Origin: Candidatus Woesebacteria bacterium
GTDB lineage: Bacteria; Patescibacteriota; Microgenomatia; UBA1400; PJMF01
NCBI GenBank assembly: GCA_017999345.1
Contig: JAGNLY010000001.1
Span: 156,535-220,534 of the forward strand
Direction: 5' to 3'
DNA: 64,000 bases
How positions within the stretch are numbered: the stretch's first letter is position 1; each line of letters starts with the position of its first letter. This document shows positions 23,600 through 64,000 of this stretch, in pieces. Under the pieces are notes generated by a model. It was not told the origin of the DNA, searched no databases, and saw nothing but the letters and a program-made list of their open reading frames with translations. Both the position numbers and the translations under genes were made by a program.

Positions 23600-23634
23600 A
23601 ATAAAAATAGTTAAATCAATCTTTAAATTACCAA

Positions 23635-23665
23635 AAACTAATACTTTTTGATTAAGTATTAGTTT
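23635..23665. promoter_or_regulatory. Perfect 12-bp inverted repeat (AAACTAATACTT-7 nt-AAGTATTAGTTT), candidate operator or 5' hairpin
   Basis: Read directly from the sequence. On the minus strand it starts immediately after a TATACT -10-like hexamer (23671..23666), between the terminator and the 496-aa gene start. Confidence 0.45.
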
Positions 23666-23730
23666 AGTATACATTTTTTGAGTAATGTTGGGGAGGGGGT
23701 GGACAGTGTTGGTGGGTCTACATTTGGGAA

Positions 23731-23760
23731 CAGAAAAGGGCGACCTTGCGGTCGCCCTTT
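23731..23760 (-). terminator. Rho-independent terminator after the 235-aa gene
   Basis: The minus strand reads AAAGGGCGACC-GCAA-GGTCGCCCTTTTCTG: an 8-11 bp GC stem, a GNRA loop and a U-tract. It lies 19 nt after the stop at 23779. Confidence 0.8.
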
Positions 23761-23778
23761 GCGTTCTGTATTGCTGGA

Positions 23779-24486
23779 TTATTCGTCTGGCCAAAGGGCA
23801 TCTTTGAGAAGCCCAATGCCGGCTACGGTGAACATGTCATCCATGTCAGCGTTCTGCAGAATCTTACTGACGGGCATGAAGATGCTCGCCACAAGACGTT
23901 TACCTGCAACATCTTCTTTATCTGAGGGAATCACTTCATTTTTGAATTTGAAGTATCCCATTCCAGAAATCAGTTGCAGCGCTCGTTTGTTGACGAGCAA
24001 TGAAAAGAACCGACAGCCCTCGCCTTGATTGGTTAGCAACCAAGCAGAGTTGCTGTTGAGTGCATTGCCAAGAGGATTTGTTTTGAACGGAACGTCCAAA
24101 CCAAATTCCACTTTAGCTGTTTCTTCCGCCAAGGTCAGGTGTTGCTGGCCTGGCTTCAAAAATGCTCGCGGCAGATTCAAAACTTCGCGACCGTTTCTCA
24201 TCTCACGAATGACAGCGACGTGAAGGTTTTTGCGTGTGTGTTCTCCATTAAAGAAGTACGCCACGCTAATGCTTCCACCACCACCTTTTTCGGTGGTAAC
24301 GAATGCATCATAACCTTCAGGTCGTTTACCATAGGAGATGGCTGCGCCAAGCCGTTCCTGGAAGGTATCAATCTTTGCGACTGCGGCCATGTCAATGACA
24401 GCCCCGTCTTTCAAAGTGATGATGCCAGTCCATCCTTGACCATCATTGATGGTCACGGGTCGTACGAATTCTCTTGCAGTAGTCAT
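23779..24486 (-). CDS. 235-aa Nudix/ADP-ribose-pyrophosphatase-like fold protein with degenerate Nudix box; G+C-rich
   Basis: AAAGGAAAAG lies 5 nt upstream of ATG 24486 (MTTAREF). VAVIREMRNGREVLNLPRAFLKPGQQHLTLAEETAKVEFGL has ADPRase-like spacing, but only the final E-x-G-U of the Nudix signature is kept. The C-terminal DMFTVAGIGLL resembles the ADPRase C-terminal helix. Sampled lines give about 47% G+C. Confidence 0.7.
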   Translation of the reverse strand: MTTAREFVRPVTINDGQGWTGIITLKDGAVIDMAAVAKIDTFQERLGAAISYGKRPEGYDAFVTTEKGGGGSISVAYFFNGEHTRKNLHVAVIREMRNGREVLNLPRAFLKPGQQHLTLAEETAKVEFGLDVPFKTNPLGNALNSNSAWLLTNQGEGCRFFSLLVNKRALQLISGMGYFKFKNEVIPSDKEDVAGKRLVASIFMPVSKILQNADMDDMFTVAGIGLLKDALWPDE

Positions 24487-35563: not shown

Positions 35564-38500
35564 ATGAAAAATATAATCAACTTCTCTGCTTTAGAAATTC
35601 GCATCGCATCACCTGAGACTATAAAGTCTTGGTCTTTCGGCGAAGTCAAGAAACCAGAGACAATCAACTACAGATCACTTAAGGCAGAAAAAGATGGCCT
35701 TTTTGATGAAAAAATCTTTGGACCTATCAAAGATTACGAATGTTATTGTGGAAAATACAAGAGAATTCGTTATAAGGGTATCGTTTGTGACAAATGCGGT
35801 GTCGAGGTTACTCAGTCAAAAGTTAGACGTGAAAGAATGGCTCACATTACTTTGTCAGCTCCAGTAGCTCACATCTGGTTTTTCAAAGGTGCTCCATCAA
35901 AATTGTCACTCTTGTTAGACATTTCACCAAGAAATCTTAGTTCAATAATTTATTTCTCAAAATACTTAGTTTTGGATATAAATTCTGAAGAGAGAACCGA
36001 AATTGCAGATAGATTAGATATTGATTTAGTCGCTGCTCAAGACGAACTCAAAGAAGAAGCTAAGAAAGAAATGGAAGCTGTTAAGAATGCTTTGACTGAA
36101 GACAAATCTAGTTTGAAGGAAAAAGTTACCAGCAAAGAAACATTGCAACTTAAACTTACCGAAGTTGAGTTAAAAGCAAAAAACAAGTTAGTTTCACTCA
36201 AGAAACATCTAGAAGTCAAGTTAGATCAAACTGAAGAGATCTACAAAACCATTAAACAAATGGTTAAGAAGATTAACAAAGGTATGATCTTGACTGAAGA
36301 TGAGTACATGAAGCTAGATGATTACAATGCAGCTTCTCACCTAAGAGTCGGAATGGGTGCAGAAAGTATTTTAGAGTTAGCAGATGCAATTGATATCAAT
36401 AAATTAGTTTTAAAGCTTAGAGAAGAAATTGAAGATTCAAAAGGCGCAAAATTAATTAAAGCTCTCAAAAGATTAAGAGTTGCTGAAGGTTTAAGAAAAG
36501 CAAAGATCAAAGCATCATGGATGTTCATGACTGTTTTGCCAGTTATTCCTCCAGATTTAAGACCTATGGTTCAACTTTCAGGTGGTAGATTTGCAACTTC
36601 AGACCTAAATGATCTTTATAGAAGAGTTATCAATAGAAACAATCGTTTAAAACACCTTATAGAACTTGGAGCTCCTGAAATCATTTTAAGAAATGAAAAA
36701 AGAATGCTTCAAGAAGCTGTAGACTCATTAATTGATGGTTCTAGTGCAAGACAAACCAGAAGAAGACAGACAAGAAGACCTTTAAAATCTTTATCAGAAA
36801 TGTTAAAGGGTAAACAAGGACGCTTCCGTCAAAACTTACTTGGTAAACGTGTTGACTACTCAGGACGTTCAGTTATCGTTGTTGGTCCAGAGCTCAAACT
36901 TAATGAGTGCGGCTTACCAAAAGATATGGCTTTGGAAATGTTCAAACCATATGTTTTAAGAGAATTAATTGTTAACGGTACTGCTCCAAACGTTAAGAGT
37001 GCAAAGCACCTTATTGAACGTCACGAACCAGAAGTTTACGATATTCTTGAAGAAGTTACCAAGAATCATCCAGTTATTCTAAATCGTGCCCCAACCTTGC
37101 ATAAACTTGGTATGCAGGCATTTTTCCCAATTTTGATTGAGGGAAATGCAATCAGATTGCATCCTTGTGTATGTTCTGGCTACAATGCTGACTTCGATGG
37201 AGACCAAATGGCCGTTCACGTACCTTTGACCAAAAAAGCACAGCAAGAAGCTATTGATTTGTTAATGGCAACTAATAATTTGCTTAAACCAGCTAATGGT
37301 GAGCCTATTACTATTCCAAACAAAGAGATGGCAATGGGTATTTATTACCACACAGTTGTTGACAGAAAATTAAAAGTTTATCCAGGTGTTTTCTCATCTA
37401 AAGATGAAGCATATCACGTTTACCAAATCGGTAAACTTCAACTAAGACAGCCAGCAATGGTTAGAGTTGCTTCACTCGGTAAAATAATTGAGACAACAGT
37501 TGGAAGATTACAATTTAATGATTTGTTGCCAGCAGAATTCGGTTTCATGAATGATGCAATTGGTGCAAAAACTATCAAGAAATTGGTTACAAGTGCAATT
37601 AAAGAACTCGACAAACAAAGAGTTGCAAACTTAATTGACTCAATCAAGAACTTAGGTTTTGAAGCAGCAACAACATCAGGAATTTCAGTTTCAGTTAGTG
37701 ACTGTGAAATGATTGAAAACAAAGATGAAATTATCGCAACTGCCAACAAAAAAGTTGAAGAAATTCAGTCTCAATACAATGAAGGTATGATTGCTCTCGA
37801 AGAGAGAAAGAGACTTTCATTTGATGTTTGGATCGATACAACTGAAGATATTGCAGAAAAAACTTGGAATACATATTCCGAAGATAATGCTGTTAAAGTC
37901 ATGATTGAATCAGGTGGAACTCGTGCTTCTAAAGATCAGGTCAAACAGCTGGCTGCAATGCGTGGATTGGTTGTTGACCCAAATGGTAACATCGTCGAGA
38001 TGCCTACCAAGTCTAACTTTAGAGAAGGTTTGACAATTTTTGAGTACGTTACATCTGCAAGAGGTTCTCGTAAAGGTTTGACTGACTCTGCTATTAAAAC
38101 TGCAGACGCTGGTTACCTTACAAGACGTTTGTGTGACGTGTCTCATGATGCAATCATTAGACTTAATGACTGTGGAACCGAAAATTTCATCAACATTAAT
38201 GACACTGACAGAACTGAAGTATTTGCAACCAGAATTGCAGGCAGAATTTTGGCAAAAGATATCGTTCTTAACAAAAAAGTTGTTGCTGAAAAAGGTATTT
38301 TGGTTACTCCAGAGTTAGCAAATGATCTGGTAAAAGCAGGTGTGAAATCTGCTGATGTTAGATCACCACTTACTTGTGAGTCTCCAAAAGGACTTTGTGC
38401 TTCTTGTTACGGAATTGACTTCTCAACATCAAAGATGATTGAGATTGGAGTTCCAGTTGGAATCGTTGCAGCACAATCTATTGGAGAGCCAGGTACTCAG

Positions 38501-39253
38501 CTTACAATGAGAACCAAACATAGTGGAGGTATTTTGGGTGCCGACGTGACTCAAGGTTTGCCACGTGTTGAAGAACTCTTAGAAGCAAGAACTCCAAAGA
38601 ATCAAGCAATCATCAGTGAAATTGCTGGAAAAGTTTCTATTGAAGAAAGTGACAAAGATGTCATTGTTACAATTAGAACAACATCATCTCCAGTAGAAGA
38701 AGTTGAATACAAGATTTCAAATCACTCTGACCTTTTGGTTAAAGATGGCGATTTGGTTCATGTTGGACAACAACTAACTGTCGGTTCTGTAAGTTTGAAA
38801 GAACTAGCAGTCGTCAAAGGTTTGTTACAAGCTCAACAATACACTATTGATCAAGTTCAAGCTGTTTATGAATCTCAAGGAATTCCAATTCATGACAAAC
38901 ATTTTGAAACAATCATTAGAAAGATGTGTGACAAGCTTCAGGTTGAATCTGCAGGCGACACTGATTTCTTAACTGGTGAAATTGTTGAAAAAACCAAATT
39001 TATTGAAGCAAATGACGAAGCAATGGCTGCCGGTGGTGAACCAGCAACTGCAAAAGTTCTCTTCTTGGGAATTACTCGTTCTTCATTGTTTACAGCTTCT
39101 TGGTTGTCAGCAGCTTCTTTCCAACACACAAAGAATGTTCTTACTGATGCTTCAGCAGCAGGTAAGATCGATTACTTGGATGGTTTGAAAGAAAATGTCA
39201 TTATTGGTAGATTGATTCCAACCAGTAAAGAGAGAGCAAGTATCGAGATGTAG
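35564..39253 (+). CDS. rpoC: DNA-directed RNA polymerase beta' subunit
   Basis: Zn-binding CYCGKYKRIRYKGIVCDKCG, the catalytic NADFDGDQMAVH motif, and trigger-loop/bridge-helix regions. Confidence 0.98.
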   Translation: MKNIINFSALEIRIASPETIKSWSFGEVKKPETINYRSLKAEKDGLFDEKIFGPIKDYECYCGKYKRIRYKGIVCDKCGVEVTQSKVRRERMAHITLSAPVAHIWFFKGAPSKLSLLLDISPRNLSSIIYFSKYLVLDINSEERTEIADRLDIDLVAAQDELKEEAKKEMEAVKNALTEDKSSLKEKVTSKETLQLKLTEVELKAKNKLVSLKKHLEVKLDQTEEIYKTIKQMVKKINKGMILTEDEYMKLDDYNAASHLRVGMGAESILELADAIDINKLVLKLREEIEDSKGAKLIKALKRLRVAEGLRKAKIKASWMFMTVLPVIPPDLRPMVQLSGGRFATSDLNDLYRRVINRNNRLKHLIELGAPEIILRNEKRMLQEAVDSLIDGSSARQTRRRQTRRPLKSLSEMLKGKQGRFRQNLLGKRVDYSGRSVIVVGPELKLNECGLPKDMALEMFKPYVLRELIVNGTAPNVKSAKHLIERHEPEVYDILEEVTKNHPVILNRAPTLHKLGMQAFFPILIEGNAIRLHPCVCSGYNADFDGDQMAVHVPLTKKAQQEAIDLLMATNNLLKPANGEPITIPNKEMAMGIYYHTVVDRKLKVYPGVFSSKDEAYHVYQIGKLQLRQPAMVRVASLGKIIETTVGRLQFNDLLPAEFGFMNDAIGAKTIKKLVTSAIKELDKQRVANLIDSIKNLGFEAATTSGISVSVSDCEMIENKDEIIATANKKVEEIQSQYNEGMIALEERKRLSFDVWIDTTEDIAEKTWNTYSEDNAVKVMIESGGTRASKDQVKQLAAMRGLVVDPNGNIVEMPTKSNFREGLTIFEYVTSARGSRKGLTDSAIKTADAGYLTRRLCDVSHDAIIRLNDCGTENFININDTDRTEVFATRIAGRILAKDIVLNKKVVAEKGILVTPELANDLVKAGVKSADVRSPLTCESPKGLCASCYGIDFSTSKMIEIGVPVGIVAAQSIGEPGTQLTMRTKHSGGILGADVTQGLPRVEELLEARTPKNQAIISEIAGKVSIEESDKDVIVTIRTTSSPVEEVEYKISNHSDLLVKDGDLVHVGQQLTVGSVSLKELAVVKGLLQAQQYTIDQVQAVYESQGIPIHDKHFETIIRKMCDKLQVESAGDTDFLTGEIVEKTKFIEANDEAMAAGGEPATAKVLFLGITRSSLFTASWLSAASFQHTKNVLTDASAAGKIDYLDGLKENVIIGRLIPTSKERASIEM

Positions 39254-39310: not shown

Positions 39311-39340
39311 AAAAATCCCGCCAGAAATGGCGGGATTTTT
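39311..39340. terminator. Bidirectional intrinsic terminator between convergent rpoC and the 604-aa gene
   Basis: AAAAATCCCGCCA-GAAA-TGGCGGGATTTTT: a 9-bp stem and GNRA loop, flanked by an A-run and a T-run. Confidence 0.8.
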
Positions 39341-39359
39341 GGATAAAAATGTAATTATT

Positions 39360-41174
39360 TCATTTATTAGCCATAATTAAATCACTATATTGTTTCAATG
39401 TCATATATCTCTGATCCACAGATATTTTTCCTCCATCTCCTTGTTCAGATATTCCATGACTTGCAAGATGAGCTACGATAGTACTAATTCTTACAGGACC
39501 ATTTTCATCAACTAATGTTACATCTCTATTTTTTGTCAATCTATACCCACAGTTTAAACAAGGACAAGGTACATCAATATTTGATCTTAATCCTCTTGAG
39601 ATCAAAAATTCTTCTAAGGGCATTTTTCTCCCAAATAAATTATTTTTTCCTGCCACAAAGTCTTTCCATTCTTCATCTATAATAGTTTTTACTTTTTGTT
39701 TAGCTTCCAAGTCAAATTCTGCATCAGTTTGTCCATCTTTAGTTCTACTATTGTAAATTTCTTCTAAGATCTGCTCTTTTCTCTTTTGAACCAAATATTC
39801 CGTTGCATGCAATAATTCAAACATGTCGCTAGAAATCTCAGCAGGAGTAAGTCTAATTTTTCCAGATTCTTCTAGATCTATAGCAATTGCTCTATCTAAC
39901 TGTTCTTGGGTAAGGACTGCTAATTTCCCAAAATCAACACCATCAATAATTTTATTAATAATAAATTTTTCACCACCGCCAAATCCATTTAGAAATACGT
40001 ATCCTGCCTTTAGCAAATCATTTCTAGTTATGTGACTAAGATTAATACCTTTTAGGATAAAATCTAGTTGCATGTCTTCAGTTAAATTATCGTTAAGGTC
40101 CATCACCTCGAAAGGATTTGGTTCACCTTTTATTTCTTGCAAACTTGACAAGAAATCTTGTAGACTTTTTATTGGTTTTGATTGATTTTTCACTGTCTCA
40201 ACTTCAGCTTTATTTTGAGTTTCATTTGGAAACATGATGCTTGATTTAATAACAAATAAATTTTCAGCTGGTGGAAGATAATTATTTTGATAACTTTCAA
40301 AATACGATACCGTCTTCTCTTTAAAATATTTATCTTTTGTTCTATATATAGCCCAAATATGTAGTTGAGGAAAATAATAGCTCTTACCATCATCTTCTTC
40401 AGTCAGACTTGATGAACTCACCAAATGAGGGGACTTCTCTTTGTCATTTAAAATCATATTTAACACTTTTGCATACTTACTTTGATCCTGGTTTAACGTG
40501 GGTTCTAAATTTTCTTTTAATTTTTTTGCTAACTCCAACACGCCTCTGAGCTTGTTTGGGTAAAGTGTCCTATTAGTAGTTTCCTGTGATAGTTTTAACC
40601 AAAAACGACTTTCTTCAACATTCTCTTCATCACTTTTTGCAGGATTAGTTCTCTTGGAATATTCCATATATTGTGCAGCGCGATCGTCCCATTCTGGATC
40701 ATTAACATTTTTTATAAAATTAATAAATTTTTCAATCTCATCTGATATTCTAGTTTCACTGGCACCAGAGATAATCAGATTAAATATTGATTTTAGCTCA
40801 GAATTTAAATGATCAGAATGCTTTTTAATTGTCCGCCACTTATTTTCAACTTCTTTAAATTTTTCTTTTTTTCCATAACTTGAGTAAACTTTTCTAATAG
40901 TTGAGCTAATTCTTGGTTCCTGTTTAGTTTCTATTTCATGACCAATAATATTCAAAATATTATCAAGGGTAATTTCTAGCTGTTTTAGATTTTCCCAGTT
41001 GTCATCATGATCTGGCTTGCGAATATTAGAATATCCAAAATATGATTCGACAGAAGATAAAATATAAGCAATTTGCTTGATTATCATTTTTAATTCTGGA
41101 ACGTCTTTAAAATTGGTTATCTCTTTACCATAAAGTTTTTCTGGCTTCTGGGGGTCATCATTTTCTTTATACAT
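39360..41174 (-). CDS. Orphan 604-aa protein, unknown function
   Basis: Long uninterrupted ORF with neighbourhood-like AT-rich composition. No TM or signal sequence. The C-terminus has the Cys/His cluster DVPCPCLNCGY...AHLASHG. TATAAT (41189-41184, minus strand) lies 9 nt upstream of the ATG. Confidence 0.7.
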   Translation of the reverse strand: MYKENDDPQKPEKLYGKEITNFKDVPELKMIIKQIAYILSSVESYFGYSNIRKPDHDDNWENLKQLEITLDNILNIIGHEIETKQEPRISSTIRKVYSSYGKKEKFKEVENKWRTIKKHSDHLNSELKSIFNLIISGASETRISDEIEKFINFIKNVNDPEWDDRAAQYMEYSKRTNPAKSDEENVEESRFWLKLSQETTNRTLYPNKLRGVLELAKKLKENLEPTLNQDQSKYAKVLNMILNDKEKSPHLVSSSSLTEEDDGKSYYFPQLHIWAIYRTKDKYFKEKTVSYFESYQNNYLPPAENLFVIKSSIMFPNETQNKAEVETVKNQSKPIKSLQDFLSSLQEIKGEPNPFEVMDLNDNLTEDMQLDFILKGINLSHITRNDLLKAGYVFLNGFGGGEKFIINKIIDGVDFGKLAVLTQEQLDRAIAIDLEESGKIRLTPAEISSDMFELLHATEYLVQKRKEQILEEIYNSRTKDGQTDAEFDLEAKQKVKTIIDEEWKDFVAGKNNLFGRKMPLEEFLISRGLRSNIDVPCPCLNCGYRLTKNRDVTLVDENGPVRISTIVAHLASHGISEQGDGGKISVDQRYMTLKQYSDLIMANK

Positions 41175-41268
41175 AGTAAATATATTATAAAATCACAGTG
41201 CTAATTTATAGTGGAGCACAATAAAGTTTAAGTCAAGATTAATAAAACAATAAACTATCCTATAATTA

Positions 41269-41297
41269 TTGACAAAAGCACATTCTGGAGCTATAAT
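41269..41297 (+). promoter_or_regulatory. Perfect consensus sigma70 promoter TTGACA-17-TATAAT
   Basis: TTGACA at 41269-74, a 17-nt spacer, TATAAT at 41292-97. Confidence 0.65.
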
Positions 41298-41303
41298 TAG
41301 GGT

Positions 41304-41518
41304 GTGAGATAAATTAGTTTTTTGAATTAAAGCAATTCAATTTAACACTAATTTATCGATCAAAACGCACATTAATAACTTGCAAAATACTTTATCCAAA
41401 TGAGTAGCACTTTGGGAATCATTGATTATGGTTCTTGAGGCGCTACTCATTCACATGAGTTGACATTACTCCAACTGGAGCGATGACAAACATTCATTCA
41501 AAAAAAGGATTAGACACC
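41304..41518 (+). promoter_or_regulatory. Structured 5' leader with alternative hairpins (candidate riboregulator)
   Basis: Hairpin 1 pairs GATAAATTAGT (41308-18) with ACTAATTTATC (41347-57), with an inner TTGAATT/AATTCAA stem. ATGAGTAGC (41400-08) pairs with GCTACTCAT (41442-50), and part of the latter can instead pair with ATGAGT (41455-60). Confidence 0.4.
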
Positions 41519-42046
41519 ATGAAAAAGAATATCACTATCCTAGTTCTTGCACTTGTTTTACTGTTTTTAGCCGGGATTTACAGAAAAGACGAGGCCCGGA
41601 TCTTGGAATTGGAGACGCAAGTCTCTGAGCTCCAAGAAAAAAACAACGCGTTTGCCGATCATGCCGTTGCTCTTCAAGAGCAGTTGGCTACTCTTGATTA
41701 CAATAATACTGTGATCAAGATTGTGGACAAGCAGGGGCTTTTGAATGACAGTCTTGTGTTGGGCCCATCGTTTGTTGTCTTGGAAGATGAGCTCCACTCA
41801 AAAAATGGAGAAGTTCGTCTTGTCAACACTCTGCTGGAAGCAGGGAGTAACAACTCCCTGTGGCTGTATGATGGTAGCACGGGCGAAAAGACTTATCTCA
41901 ACGCGTTCGCCGGAGAAACCGTCATTTTAAATGCGGGACCAGCGAATGAAGTAGGAGAAGTTTACCTTCAATACACAACCTGTTACACGAATAACAATTT
42001 CGCGTGTATCGGGAAGGTTTATCCAACTTCCATCAAAATCAAATAA
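41519..42046 (+). CDS. G+C-rich 175-aa membrane-anchored/secreted protein, unknown function
   Basis: ATG 41519 gives MKKNITILVLALVLLFLAG (a signal/anchor) with AAAGGA 10 nt upstream. The track start at 41483 adds 12 aa. A coiled-coil segment is followed by a beta-rich domain. Sampled lines give about 47-52% G+C. Confidence 0.65.
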   Translation: MKKNITILVLALVLLFLAGIYRKDEARILELETQVSELQEKNNAFADHAVALQEQLATLDYNNTVIKIVDKQGLLNDSLVLGPSFVVLEDELHSKNGEVRLVNTLLEAGSNNSLWLYDGSTGEKTYLNAFAGETVILNAGPANEVGEVYLQYTTCYTNNNFACIGKVYPTSIKIK

Positions 42047-42072
42047 GAAAAAGTAGCGCAAGTTAACAATGT

Positions 42073-42101
42073 GAAGAGCCTCGGCGCAAGCCGAGGCTTT
42101 T
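42073..42101 (+). terminator. Rho-independent terminator after the 175-aa gene
   Basis: GCCTCGGC-GCAA-GCCGAGGC followed by TTTTT. Confidence 0.8.
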
Positions 42102-42149
42102 TCACGCATTAATCTTAATAATTCCACAAGACACAAAAATTAATTGTTA

Positions 42150-42158
42150 TGATATAAT
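42150..42158 (+). promoter_or_regulatory. Extended -10 promoter (TGaTATAAT) for the str operon
   Basis: TG-a-TATAAT lies 35 nt upstream of rpsL. GGAG SD at 42180-83. Confidence 0.5.
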
Positions 42159-45356: not shown

Positions 45357-46553
45357 ATGGCAGACGCAAAAAAATTTATACGTGACAAAAAGCACGTCAA
45401 TATCGGTACAATTGGTCACGTTGACCATGGAAAAACAACTCTTACAGCAGCTATAGCAACTACTTTATCAGTTAAAGTTCCAAGTAGTATCAACAAAGCA
45501 ATGAACTACCTAGATATTGATAATGCTCCAGAAGAAGCAGCTCGTGGAGTCACAATCAATATTTCACATATTGAGTACGAAACAACAAAGAGACATTACG
45601 CTCACATTGATGCTCCAGGACATGCTGACTATATTAAAAATATGATCACAGGTGCAGCTCAAATGGACGGTGCAATTTTAGTTGTTGCCGCTACCGATGG
45701 TCCTATGCCACAAACACATGAGCATATTTTGTTGGCAAAACAAGTTAACGTTCCAAACCTAGTTGTTGCATTGAACAAATGTGACATGGTTGATGACGCA
45801 GAACTTTTAGACTTAGTTGAAATGGAAGTCAGAGAATTACTAACAAAGCATGGCTTTGATGGTGACAATGCTCCAGTTCACAGAGTTTCAGCACTTAAAG
45901 CACTTGAGGGTGATGATGCAGAACAAATGAAGATCATGGCACTCATGGATTCAGTAGACTCATTTATCCCAGATCCAGTAAGAGAATTGGACAAACCATT
46001 CTTGATGCCTGTTGAAGATGTTTTCTCTATCAAAGGTAGAGGAACTGTCGTTACTGGTCGTATCGAATCAGGAATAATCAAGGTTGGTGATGAAATTGAA
46101 ATTGCTGGTATCAAAGATACAGCAAAATCAACCGTCACTGGTGTTGAAATGTTTAGAAAAATGCTTGATCAAGGTGAAGCAGGAGACAATGTTGGAATAC
46201 TTTTGAGAGGTGTTGGCAAAGATGACGTCGAAAGAGGTCAAGTTTTGGCAAAACCAGGTACAGCAAGTGTTCATACAGAATTTGAAGCTGAAGTTTATAT
46301 CTTAACCAAAGAAGAAGGTGGAAGACATAAACCATTCTTCTCAGGTTATAGACCACAATTTTACGTTAGAACAACTGACGTAACTGGAGAAATTAAACTT
46401 CCAGACGGCGTTGAAATGGTTATGCCTGGCGACAATGCAAAGATGCACGTCAAATTAATCGTTCCAGTCGTAGCTTCAGAAGGATTGCGTTTTGCTATCC
46501 GTGAAGGTGGACACACAATTGGTGCTGGTGCAATTACCAAGATTACCAAGTAA
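45357..46553 (+). CDS. tuf: Elongation factor Tu
   Basis: [29 protein letters not shown] upstream. Confidence 0.98.
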
Positions 46554-46569
46554 TTTAAGATAGAATATA

Positions 46570-46601
46570 TTTTCGCCCCGCATAAAAGTGCGGGGCGAAA
46601 A
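46570..46601 (+). terminator. Terminator-like hairpin after tuf
   Basis: TTTTCGCCCCGCA-TAAAAG-TGCGGGGCGAAAA, a 13-bp stem. The downstream T-tract is weak. Confidence 0.55.
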
Positions 46602-46659: not shown

Positions 46660-46688
46660 TTTACATCTTGAGGAATTTTATGTATAAT
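46660..46688 (+). promoter_or_regulatory. S10-operon promoter TTTACA-17-TATAAT
   Basis: TTTACA at 46660-65, TATAAT at 46683-88. The leader contains the small hairpin TATGGT-6 nt-ACCATA (46696-46713). Confidence 0.6.
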
Positions 46689-46750
46689 CTCGTCCTATGG
46701 TTTAAACACCATAAATAAGATAAAAATTAATAATTAATAAGTTGTTTAAA

Positions 46751-63436: not shown

Positions 63437-63488
63437 GGTTTCATCGGAAAGTCAAAAGCTTTCTCTTAAAAATAAAAATAGAATTAGA

Positions 63489-63517
63489 AAAGCCCTCGAA
63501 TATTCGGGGGCTTTTTT
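63489..63517 (+). terminator. Rho-independent terminator after rpsI
   Basis: AAAGCCCTCGAATATTCGGGGGCTTTTTTG: a GC-rich stem with one G.U pair followed by T6. Confidence 0.75.
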
Positions 63518-63558
63518 GTTTCATCATTTATTTTTACTCTGATATAATTTAATTTGTT

Positions 63559-64000
63559 ATGCCATTAATACTTGGAACACAAAGATTTACTATAATCGGT
63601 CATGATAATCCTCATCATGATAGAGACAATGGAGGTCATGCAAAAATTACTCCAAAAACTACATACGTCGATAGAACAAAAATGCCGTTAGATTTGTATT
63701 TAGAAATGATGGAGCTTGTTTTGATAACCGGTGAAGCTATTACTAACGTGATGATTAAAAAGGGAATTGATGTCCAAAGAATTAATTATCAAGATAATGG
63801 TAATTGGGCTTATTTTCCCGGAGTCAAAATAAAACCGGCGGTTCATGTTCACTTATACGTGAGATCAAAAAATGAAAAGCATCCAGACAATGACTTAAGA
63901 TTTAAAGCTTTTCCTAATGCTCTGTTTTTCCCATTTGTTGAAGAATCACCAGAATATTACCAAAATTTTAAGCCTTACAGCTTGCAAGATTGTGCAGACA
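63559..64000 (+). CDS. HIT-like domain protein (3' end outside window), tentative
   Basis: Open frame from ATG 63559 to the window edge: MPLILGTQRFTIIGHDNPHH...KPAVHVHLYVRSKNEKHP. HVHLY resembles a histidine-triad-like HxHxH/Y motif. TATAAT (63543-48) lies 10 nt upstream of the ATG. Confidence 0.4.
   Translation, partial: MPLILGTQRFTIIGHDNPHHDRDNGGHAKITPKTTYVDRTKMPLDLYLEMMELVLITGEAITNVMIKKGIDVQRINYQDNGNWAYFPGVKIKPAVHVHLYVRSKNEKHPDNDLRFKAFPNALFFPFVEESPEYYQNFKPYSLQDCAD

Follow-up and report, generated by a model that had tools for sequence, protein, structure and literature searches.

Organization of the locus

The window, a 64-kb stretch of DNA from an uncultured bacterium of the Candidate Phyla Radiation (CPR), contains a small forward-strand gene preceded by a strong promoter and a long structured leader. 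Upstream are rpoB and then rpoC (35564–39253, + strand), downstream are rpsL, rpsG, fusA and tuf, and the cassette thus sits between rpoC and rpsL. The small open reading frame (+ strand, ending at 42046) is separated by a 344 nt intergenic region from a divergent gene, and the features of the locus are as follows.

39360–41174, − strand: gene for a 604-residue protein with no recognisable domain, divergent from the leader gene
41249–41268, + strand: AT-rich block AAACTATCCTATAATTA, immediately 5′ of the −35 hexamer; homology between strains restarts here
41269–41297, + strand: sigma-70-type promoter, with TTGACA (41269–41274), a 17-nt spacer and TATAAT (41292–41297), a match at 12 of 12 positions
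41519–42046, + strand: coding sequence of a 175-residue protein (open reading frame, start corrected)
42074–42102, + strand: intrinsic terminator AAGAGCCUCGGC-GCAA-GCCGAGGCUUUUU, recognised from sequence as inverted repeat I4, which closes the monocistronic unit
42150–42158, + strand: extended −10 promoter TGATATAAT of rpsL-rpsG-fusA-tuf, recognised from sequence; it is outside the leader unit and marks the downstream boundary

The cassette is monocistronic and consists of the promoter, the leader, the 175-residue reading frame and the terminator, because both the terminator at 42074–42102 and rpsL's own promoter lie beyond the gene. Hairpins equivalent to the terminator are present 3′ of the small gene in three other loci (L008, L094 and L096), and the TGATATAAT element stands directly 3′ of rpoC in L006, which is without the cassette. 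We considered whether the leader might be a ribosomal-protein operon leader acting on rpsL (str operon, S12/S7), but the terminator and the separate rpsL promoter intervene, and in most of 80 related genomes rpoC abuts rpsL without such a leader. The 604-residue protein has no match in Pfam, PHROGs or PADLOC, no regulator gene and no DNA-binding protein gene is linked to the leader, and no tRNA or tmRNA was found in the 64-kb window.

The annotated start codon of the small gene, at 41483, is rejected, as a 1-nt deletion in L003 puts a stop codon in the extension. Because this deletion breaks the 41483 extension we place the start of the coding sequence at 41519, a correction that is itself a gain for annotation.

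Distribution among related genomes

Four alleles of the leader are available, that of the window and L001, and those of L002, L003/L004 and L093. They were obtained from the contigs of the clusters of the small protein, for which just three further clusters exist among 5.8 billion proteins, and from exact look-ups with the S12 protein. All four represent one species, because rpoC, rpsL, rpsG and fusA are ~99% identical among them, and the genomes nearest to the window carry the labels Pacebacteria or Paceibacterota.

A scan of the GTDB species representatives with the RpoC C-terminus yielded 80 related loci; rpsL was found downstream in 62 of these, usually ~50–250 nt after rpoC. When ~0.86 Mb from the 80 related genomes was searched for a homologue of the leader with an nhmmer profile and a covariance model, the only matches were from the same species. 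The small gene occurs outside the species in just one other (L008, L005), where it is without the promoter, the leader and the membrane-anchor codons. No further copies of the leader were found in the 64-kb window by blastn-short and nhmmer, two pattern scans of viral contigs gave no leader match, and a distant blastn search of phage records gave only a 46-nt chance match. A scan of metagenomes with a wobble-tolerant pattern for the long hairpin H2 (see below) gave four chance matches, and the metagenome from which L003 derives is evidently outside the collection. L086, L087 and L089 have no similarity past the 22-nt H2 pattern (two open ATG-initiated reading frames), and L088 has the same short nhmmer match as L087. 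On this distribution the leader is young and limited to one species, and such a narrow, one-species distribution argues against its being a riboswitch class.

The promoter

The exact consensus promoter is present in a single copy in the 64 kb, both strands included, with 0.06 copies expected from shuffled sequence and at least one copy in 6 of 100 shuffles; the next best match in the window agrees at 11 of 12 positions. The first-pass annotation had called attention to TTGACA-17-TATAAT as exact and rare in this window, and it was right both in its coordinates and in its assessment of rarity. The promoter lies 221 nt upstream of the start codon and is oriented towards the small gene, and in the four alleles the hexamers and their 17-nt spacing are invariant, with two to five spacer positions differing. 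By sequence, it appears to be a functional and very strong promoter of the sigma-70 type, with transcription predicted, from the position of the −10 hexamer, to start near G41304. In L003, L004 and L093 unalignable DNA gives way at 41249 to sequence homologous to the window, and the AT-rich block that begins there may be an UP element.

The encoded protein

From its N- to its C-terminus the 175-residue protein comprises a membrane anchor, a coiled coil and a β-sandwich, the last of which is hypervariable between strains. Its AlphaFold2 model (pLDDT 73) has no significant fold match in the PDB, and the protein belongs to no Pfam or PADLOC family; its single PHROGs match is weak, to a family of Rz-like spanins, and covers the N-terminal anchor and coiled-coil region. 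Comparison of the C-terminal domain between alleles gives a dN of ~0.33 with dS saturated, in strains with housekeeping genes that are ~99% identical. The C-terminal variants are alleles that have diverged deeply and moved between strains by recombination, which is typical of surface-exposed proteins. Such variability suggests that strong diversifying or frequency-dependent pressure acts on a protein at the cell surface, for which a phage receptor or a host-contact protein are candidate roles. In this cassette it is the promoter and leader that are conserved, and the protein is among the most variable loci of these ~99%-identical strains. We regard this hypervariable envelope-protein cassette as more noteworthy biology than the leader itself, and it could merit follow-up in CPR bacteria.

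The arrangement recalls the Campylobacter fetus sap genes, in which a conserved 5′ expression region precedes variable surface-protein alleles, and the cassette likewise joins a conserved promoter, leader and N-terminal part to divergent C-terminal alleles. It differs from sap in that the variation is between strains and that neither silent cassettes of the variable protein, sought in the 64-kb window, nor a linked recombinase was found. A diversity-generating retroelement was also considered as the source of variability, but there is no second copy of the gene or of its variable part in the window, the flanking genes are without a Pfam domain, and the divergence extends over 340 nt and includes indels. 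In L003 a 10-bp direct repeat, GGATCTTGGA, lies on either side of the promoter-leader-anchor block, and the block is missing from L005 and L008. We note that the coding portion of the mRNA, too, has an unusual degree of structure (z = −5.8).

Predicted structure of the leader

From the predicted +1 (G41304) to the start of the coding sequence at 41519 the leader is ~215 nt long. The segment 41304–41525 has a minimum free energy (MFE) of −57.7 kcal/mol, versus −33.3 ± 3.9 kcal/mol for dinucleotide shuffles (z = −6.3), and none of 200 shuffles folds as well, in accord with the earlier description of a structured leader of ~215 nt after the promoter. For the opposite strand the folding is weaker (z = −4.1). 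Tiles covering the 64-kb window have a mean z of −0.6 (sd 1.5), and just a handful, mostly at terminators, are at −5 to −7; the tiles are out of phase with the leader and these are background values only.

The leader is predicted to fold into three independent hairpins, H1, H2 and H3, whose pairs have probabilities near 1. They are present in each of the four alleles (MFEs of −58 to −67 kcal/mol), and RNAalifold recovers them independently. The structural features are:

41305–41362, + strand: H1, a two-tier hairpin at the 5′ end; outer stem of 11 bp, GATAAATTAGT (41308–41318) with ACTAATTTATC (41347–41357)
41322–41328/41334–41340, + strand: inner stem of H1, TTGAATT with AATTCAA, 7 bp
41305–41307/41360–41362, + strand: optional 3-bp extension of H1 (RNAalifold)
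41363–41398, + strand: AU-rich linker, mostly single-stranded, which includes CUUUAUCC (41390–41397), able to pair with the Shine-Dalgarno (SD) region
41399–41451, + strand: H2, a long hairpin of 24 stacked positions with a 5-nt loop, −28.4 kcal/mol
41455–41497, + strand: H3, a core of nine positions (41464–41472/41477–41485) on a basal helix, −11.2 kcal/mol
41498–41518, + strand: A-rich unstructured stretch with the SD sequence AGGA (41506–41509), 9 nt before the start codon

H1 has an energy of −12.1 kcal/mol and outer-stem pair probabilities above 0.94, and it begins at nt +2 (RNAalifold) or +5 of the predicted transcript, the 5′ end being a predicted one. The 24 positions of H2 comprise 18 Watson-Crick pairs, five G·U pairs and one A·C, with probabilities of 0.94–1.0, and in H3 the basal helix is formed by AUGAGU (41455–41460) paired with AUUCAU (41492–41497). 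RNAalifold additionally predicts a long-range helix between CUUUAUCC and GGAUUAG (41507–41513), the latter conserved in all alleles, that encloses H2 and H3 and so completes a three-way junction at the SD. This helix has a probability of 0.5–0.76, but the cost of opening the SD is only 1.2–1.9 kcal/mol in all four alleles. With its A-rich context and an opening cost of at most 1.9 kcal/mol, the ribosome-binding site is accessible in these models.

The two-tier hairpin and the repeated segments to which the first-pass annotation had pointed (ATGAGTAGC at 41400–41408, GCTACTCAT at 41442–41450 and ATGAGT at 41455–41460) are all present at those positions. It had further suggested that ATGAGTAGC and ATGAGT compete for GCTACTCAT, a claim that does not survive folding: the pairing of ATGAGTAGC with GCTACTCAT is merely the lower third of H2, at its base, and the rival pairs have probabilities of 3e-6 to 1.6e-5. 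The competitor hairpin (ACUCAU/AUGAGU, 6 bp) is worth −4.4 kcal/mol versus −28.4 kcal/mol for H2, enforcing it costs +8.1 kcal/mol, and H2 is transcribed completely before the competitor segment exists. As modelled, therefore, the leader does not switch between structures. No U-tract terminator is present in 41304–41518, as had been noted, and the related expectation that any effect would more likely be on stability or translation than on transcription is supported by a leader without an intrinsic terminator.

Variation and constraint

In a sliding-window comparison the leader is 90–100% identical in all three pairwise strain comparisons, and forms an island between upstream DNA that is unalignable or 74–82% identical and a coding sequence that is 36–72% identical. 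The four alleles show no difference at all in the linker (41363–41398) or in the 5′ arm of H2. Five substitutions fall in stems, all of them transitions, and all keep or improve pairing. H1 has one change from A-U to G·U (L003 and L093), as well as an apical loop position that is A, C or T. The A·C position of H2 is A-U in L003, and apart from this the variation in H2 is confined to its loop; the apical U-A pair is lost in L003, leaving 23 continuous pairs. In the core of H3 the pair 41468/41481 is A·C in the window, G-C in L002, G·U in L003 and A-U in L093, and the pair 41467/41482 is either U·G or C-G. Loops and linkers account for the four indel events and for six of the eight transversions, and the other two transversions are at helix ends.

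These changes are of the kind that RNA stems on the + strand would be expected to produce. Moreover, G·U pairs (five in H2 alone) fit the + strand only, and this argues for constraint on the + strand RNA. The depletion of variable columns in stems is mild (7 of 118 paired versus 12 of 100 unpaired). In the comparative check proposed in the first-pass annotation, the stem changes preserve pairing in the four strains, covariation is not significant (410 of 500 shuffles do as well, among four sequences that are ~97% identical), and the leader is absent from relatives. In the alignment 97.5% of cells are paired, with one compensatory pair. Divergence of the leader, at 2–5%, exceeds that of housekeeping genes (~1%), and the conservation island could arise partly from the positions of recombination breakpoints rather than from selection on the RNA.

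Two short reading frames that overlap the leader were also considered. A 12-codon frame at 41400, which could have encoded the leader peptide of an attenuator, is frameshifted by a deletion in a loop in L003, and a 37-residue frame on the − strand (41337–41450) is likewise shifted by indels in L003.

Possible roles of the leader

The region is in itself an ordinary type of element, a strong promoter with a structured, probably stabilising 5′ UTR; it adds a lineage-specific instance to a known kind and is useful as annotation. The explanation that we favour, with moderate confidence, is that the leader is a non-switching 5′ UTR in which H1 and H2 promote mRNA stability and high expression. The consensus promoter would direct abundant transcription of an mRNA with a 5′ UTR of ~215 nt, starting at the predicted position, and H1, lying 1–4 nt from the predicted 5′ end, would block 5′-end-dependent decay of the RppH/RNase E or RNase J type and so lengthen the half-life. 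The 24-bp helix of H2 may be an additional barrier or a processing site cleaved by RNase III, the open SD would permit efficient translation, and the strong terminator hairpin would protect the 3′ end. The expected outcome is high and stable expression of a membrane-anchored, strain-variable envelope protein, and the leader likely marks a very highly expressed gene in this uncultured organism. We note that a leader of 215 nt with three hairpins is more elaborate than a simple stabiliser requires. A perfectly conserved linker and a moderately populated anti-SD helix also leave room for a bound factor.

Such a factor is the subject of an alternative that we regard as unlikely, in which the protein product itself, another RNA-binding protein, RNase III or an sRNA acts in trans on the linker or on H2, and would either tune translation through the CUUUAUCC/GGAUUAG helix or tune decay through cleavage of H2. 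The presence of the anti-SD helix in the RNAalifold prediction for all alleles, the complete invariance of the linker and of the 5′ arm of H2, and a helix of the two-turn length that RNase III needs are all consistent with this. However, the anti-SD helix opens at the small cost given above, all of its pairs are invariant so that variation provides no test of it, and no regulator is linked, the 604-residue gene being missing from L003 and L093, both of which still have the leader.

It is less probable still that the leader does little by itself. In that case the hairpins would be remnants of the DNA with which the promoter and membrane-anchor block arrived, and the conservation island would reflect recombination breakpoints, with the leader acting as a homology anchor for allele exchange. 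This would account for the absence of the block from L005 and L008 and for the GGATCTTGGA repeat around it in L003, and it sits well with a leader that has diverged more than the housekeeping genes and with covariation that is not significant. Set against it are the recurrence of the island in three of three pairwise comparisons with variable DNA on either side, stem changes that are structure-preserving transitions together with indels and most transversions that avoid stems, and the G·U bias indicating constraint on the + strand RNA. We give a similarly low likelihood to a species-restricted cis-regulatory RNA in which the invariant linker and three-way junction would bind a factor controlling the hypervariable surface protein, and in which the leader would also be the homology anchor for swaps of its divergent alleles between strains.

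The remaining possibilities fare worse. Since TTGAATT-N5-AATTCAA (41322–41340, +19 to +37) is a perfect 7-bp inverted repeat with a 5-bp spacer close downstream of +1, and has invariant arms with a centre that is A, C or T, it could be a DNA operator at which a dimeric repressor of the strong promoter binds. We think this improbable: an A to G change in the outer arm of H1 breaks the DNA symmetry and keeps a G·U pair in RNA, H2 with its five G·U pairs, which would be A·C mismatches if read from the other strand, is a poor DNA palindrome (75% complementarity), folding is stronger for the + strand than for the − strand, and no gene for a DNA-binding protein is linked. A small RNA, independent or with a dual function and generated by processing or by early termination, is very improbable. 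Abundant non-coding RNAs do typically have a consensus promoter and a compact, stable fold, but no terminator separates H3 from the start codon, there is no Rfam match and no copy elsewhere, and the leader is always directly before the same gene.

Least credible of all is the riboswitch or attenuator logic of the first-pass annotation, with ATGAGTAGC and ATGAGT contending for GCTACTCAT; the repeated hexamers are indeed present and the 6-bp ACUCAU/AUGAGU hairpin can be drawn, but there is no comparable alternative structure (pair probability ~1e-5), no terminator and no tight sequestration of the SD, H2 is finished before its competitor, the 12-codon upstream frame is frameshifted in L003, and there is neither an Rfam match nor a homologue outside one species. 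The leader resembles riboswitch and attenuator platforms in being long and structured with repeated complementary segments, and differs from them also in having no conserved aptamer and an alternative fold that is ~8 kcal/mol worse. The Rfam scan, which the first-pass annotation had recommended, matched no family, with nothing beyond chance either in the whole window at gathering thresholds or at the locus at E-values up to 10. Chance-level matches were to eukaryotic miRNA, snoRNA and lncRNA families.

Comparison with known leaders

RNase III needs a helix of about two turns, and H2, with 24 stacked positions and one A·C, is of that size (~20 bp or more). A near-perfect helix of ~two turns in the 5′ UTR, and with it the substrate geometry, is shared with the leaders of E. 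coli rnc and pnp and of phage lambda N. The gene here differs in being neither an RNase gene nor one for RNA metabolism, and H2 is a putative cleavage site. Autoregulation of rnc through its leader has been mentioned as a precedent (PMC7509114).

The stabilisation of mRNAs by 5′ stem-loops or 5′ UTRs has been reviewed for ompA, aprE, recA and vacA (PMC7509114), and the S-layer slpA mRNA combines a strong promoter with a stabilising 5′ UTR stem-loop and an exposed ribosome-binding site (PMC10221546). The leader described here is like those of E. coli ompA, B. subtilis aprE and Lactobacillus slpA in having a strong promoter, a long 5′ UTR, a first hairpin that here is predicted to lie a few nt from the 5′ end, and an exposed SD. 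The likeness extends to the gene, one for an envelope or secreted protein that is, or here would be, abundant, and to the fact that no alternative structures are required. It has no sequence homology to any of the three, it adds the 24-bp helix, and its 5′ end is predicted and its stabilising effect putative, in a host that is an uncultured CPR member. Leaders of this type are roughly 60–130 nt long, versus ~215 nt here. Should genetic tools for such organisms arise, the promoter and leader could become an expression module.

Allelic variation and gene content between rpoC and rpsL

Judged from sequence comparison, the 175-aa membrane-anchored protein encoded between rpoC and rpsL (the small gene) is hypervariable. 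Between strains its C-terminal beta-sandwich domain has ~64% DNA identity, compared with ~99% in housekeeping genes, with a dN of ~0.33 and dS saturated. The gene's deep alleles number four or five at a minimum, which suggests allele replacement at a surface-protein locus. The protein has no match in Pfam, and no match to a fold in the PDB. The alleles and the features surrounding them, in the window, in contigs of its own species (L002, L003, L093), in the sister species (L008) and in a relative without the small-gene cassette (L006), are as follows.

Features of the rpoC–rpsL interval
window ~39313-39340: rpoC terminator
window 39352-41248: block with a 604-aa gene (gene on - strand), carried by the window and L002
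window 41519-42046; L002 4878-5408; L003 3271-3801; L093 2544-3080; L008 5856-6299: small-gene alleles
L003 2893-2907 and 3345-3360; L008 5848-5870; window 41596-41612: direct-repeat junction sites
window 42150-42158; L006 4666-4674: extended -10 promoter of rpsL, TGATATAAT

There are several departures in gene content at this locus. First, both sister-species contigs (L005 and L008) lack a ~470 bp block that contains the promoter, the leader and the codons for the membrane anchor. In L003 the block has a 10-bp direct repeat, GGATCTTGGA, on both sides, and in L008 the small-gene open reading frame begins right after the rpoC terminator, at the sole copy of this repeat. The presence or absence of the block reflects one of two events: it was deleted between the short repeats, or it was inserted and the target site duplicated. 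A second departure is the block with the 604-aa gene, in place of which L003, L004 (also of the window's species) and L093 have ~60–107 bp of unrelated DNA. The 604-aa protein is without a match in Pfam, PHROGs or PADLOC and has a Cys/His cluster at its C-terminal end (CPCLNC...H..H); the gene looks like an accessory or mobile one. Third, rpsL is served by a separate extended -10 promoter and has a conserved 5′ UTR, and because in L006 the rpoC stop codon directly adjoins this -10 element with no terminator between them, the rpoC terminator and the small-gene cassette seem to have arrived together.

RNA structure in the coding region and across the window

The coding part of the small-gene mRNA (41600-42110) is unusually structured (z = -5.8 relative to shuffled sequence), and the tile at 41664-41883 has the lowest folding energy (-81 kcal/mol) of all 220-nt tiles of the window. 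The direct-repeat junction is spanned by a hairpin (41601-41637) whose pairing is preserved by wobble changes in L008.

Further tiles with folding z of -5 to -6.5
46064-46503 (+)
63444-63663 (+)
23624-24063 (both strands)

The 3′ part of tuf (+ strand) is among these tiles, none of which has an Rfam match. At the gathering threshold no Rfam family is found in window 1-64000, no tRNA gene is found across the whole 64 kb, and the curated models of ribosomal-protein leaders likewise give no match within 1-64000 of this CPR genome. The window lacks Rfam and tRNA matches although rpoBC and the str operon are present; judging by gene order, the S10, spc and alpha ribosomal operons appear to be there as well.

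Signals downstream of tuf

46570-46601: strong, symmetric terminator-like hairpin after tuf, called on the - strand
46660-46688: 11/12 promoter, TTTACA-17-TATAAT

Given its symmetry, this hairpin (TTTTCGCCCCGC...GCGGGGCGAAAA) could work on transcripts from either side. The promoter lies after it and before a 113-aa open reading frame at 46742, which by its position is probably rpsJ, the leading gene of the S10 operon.
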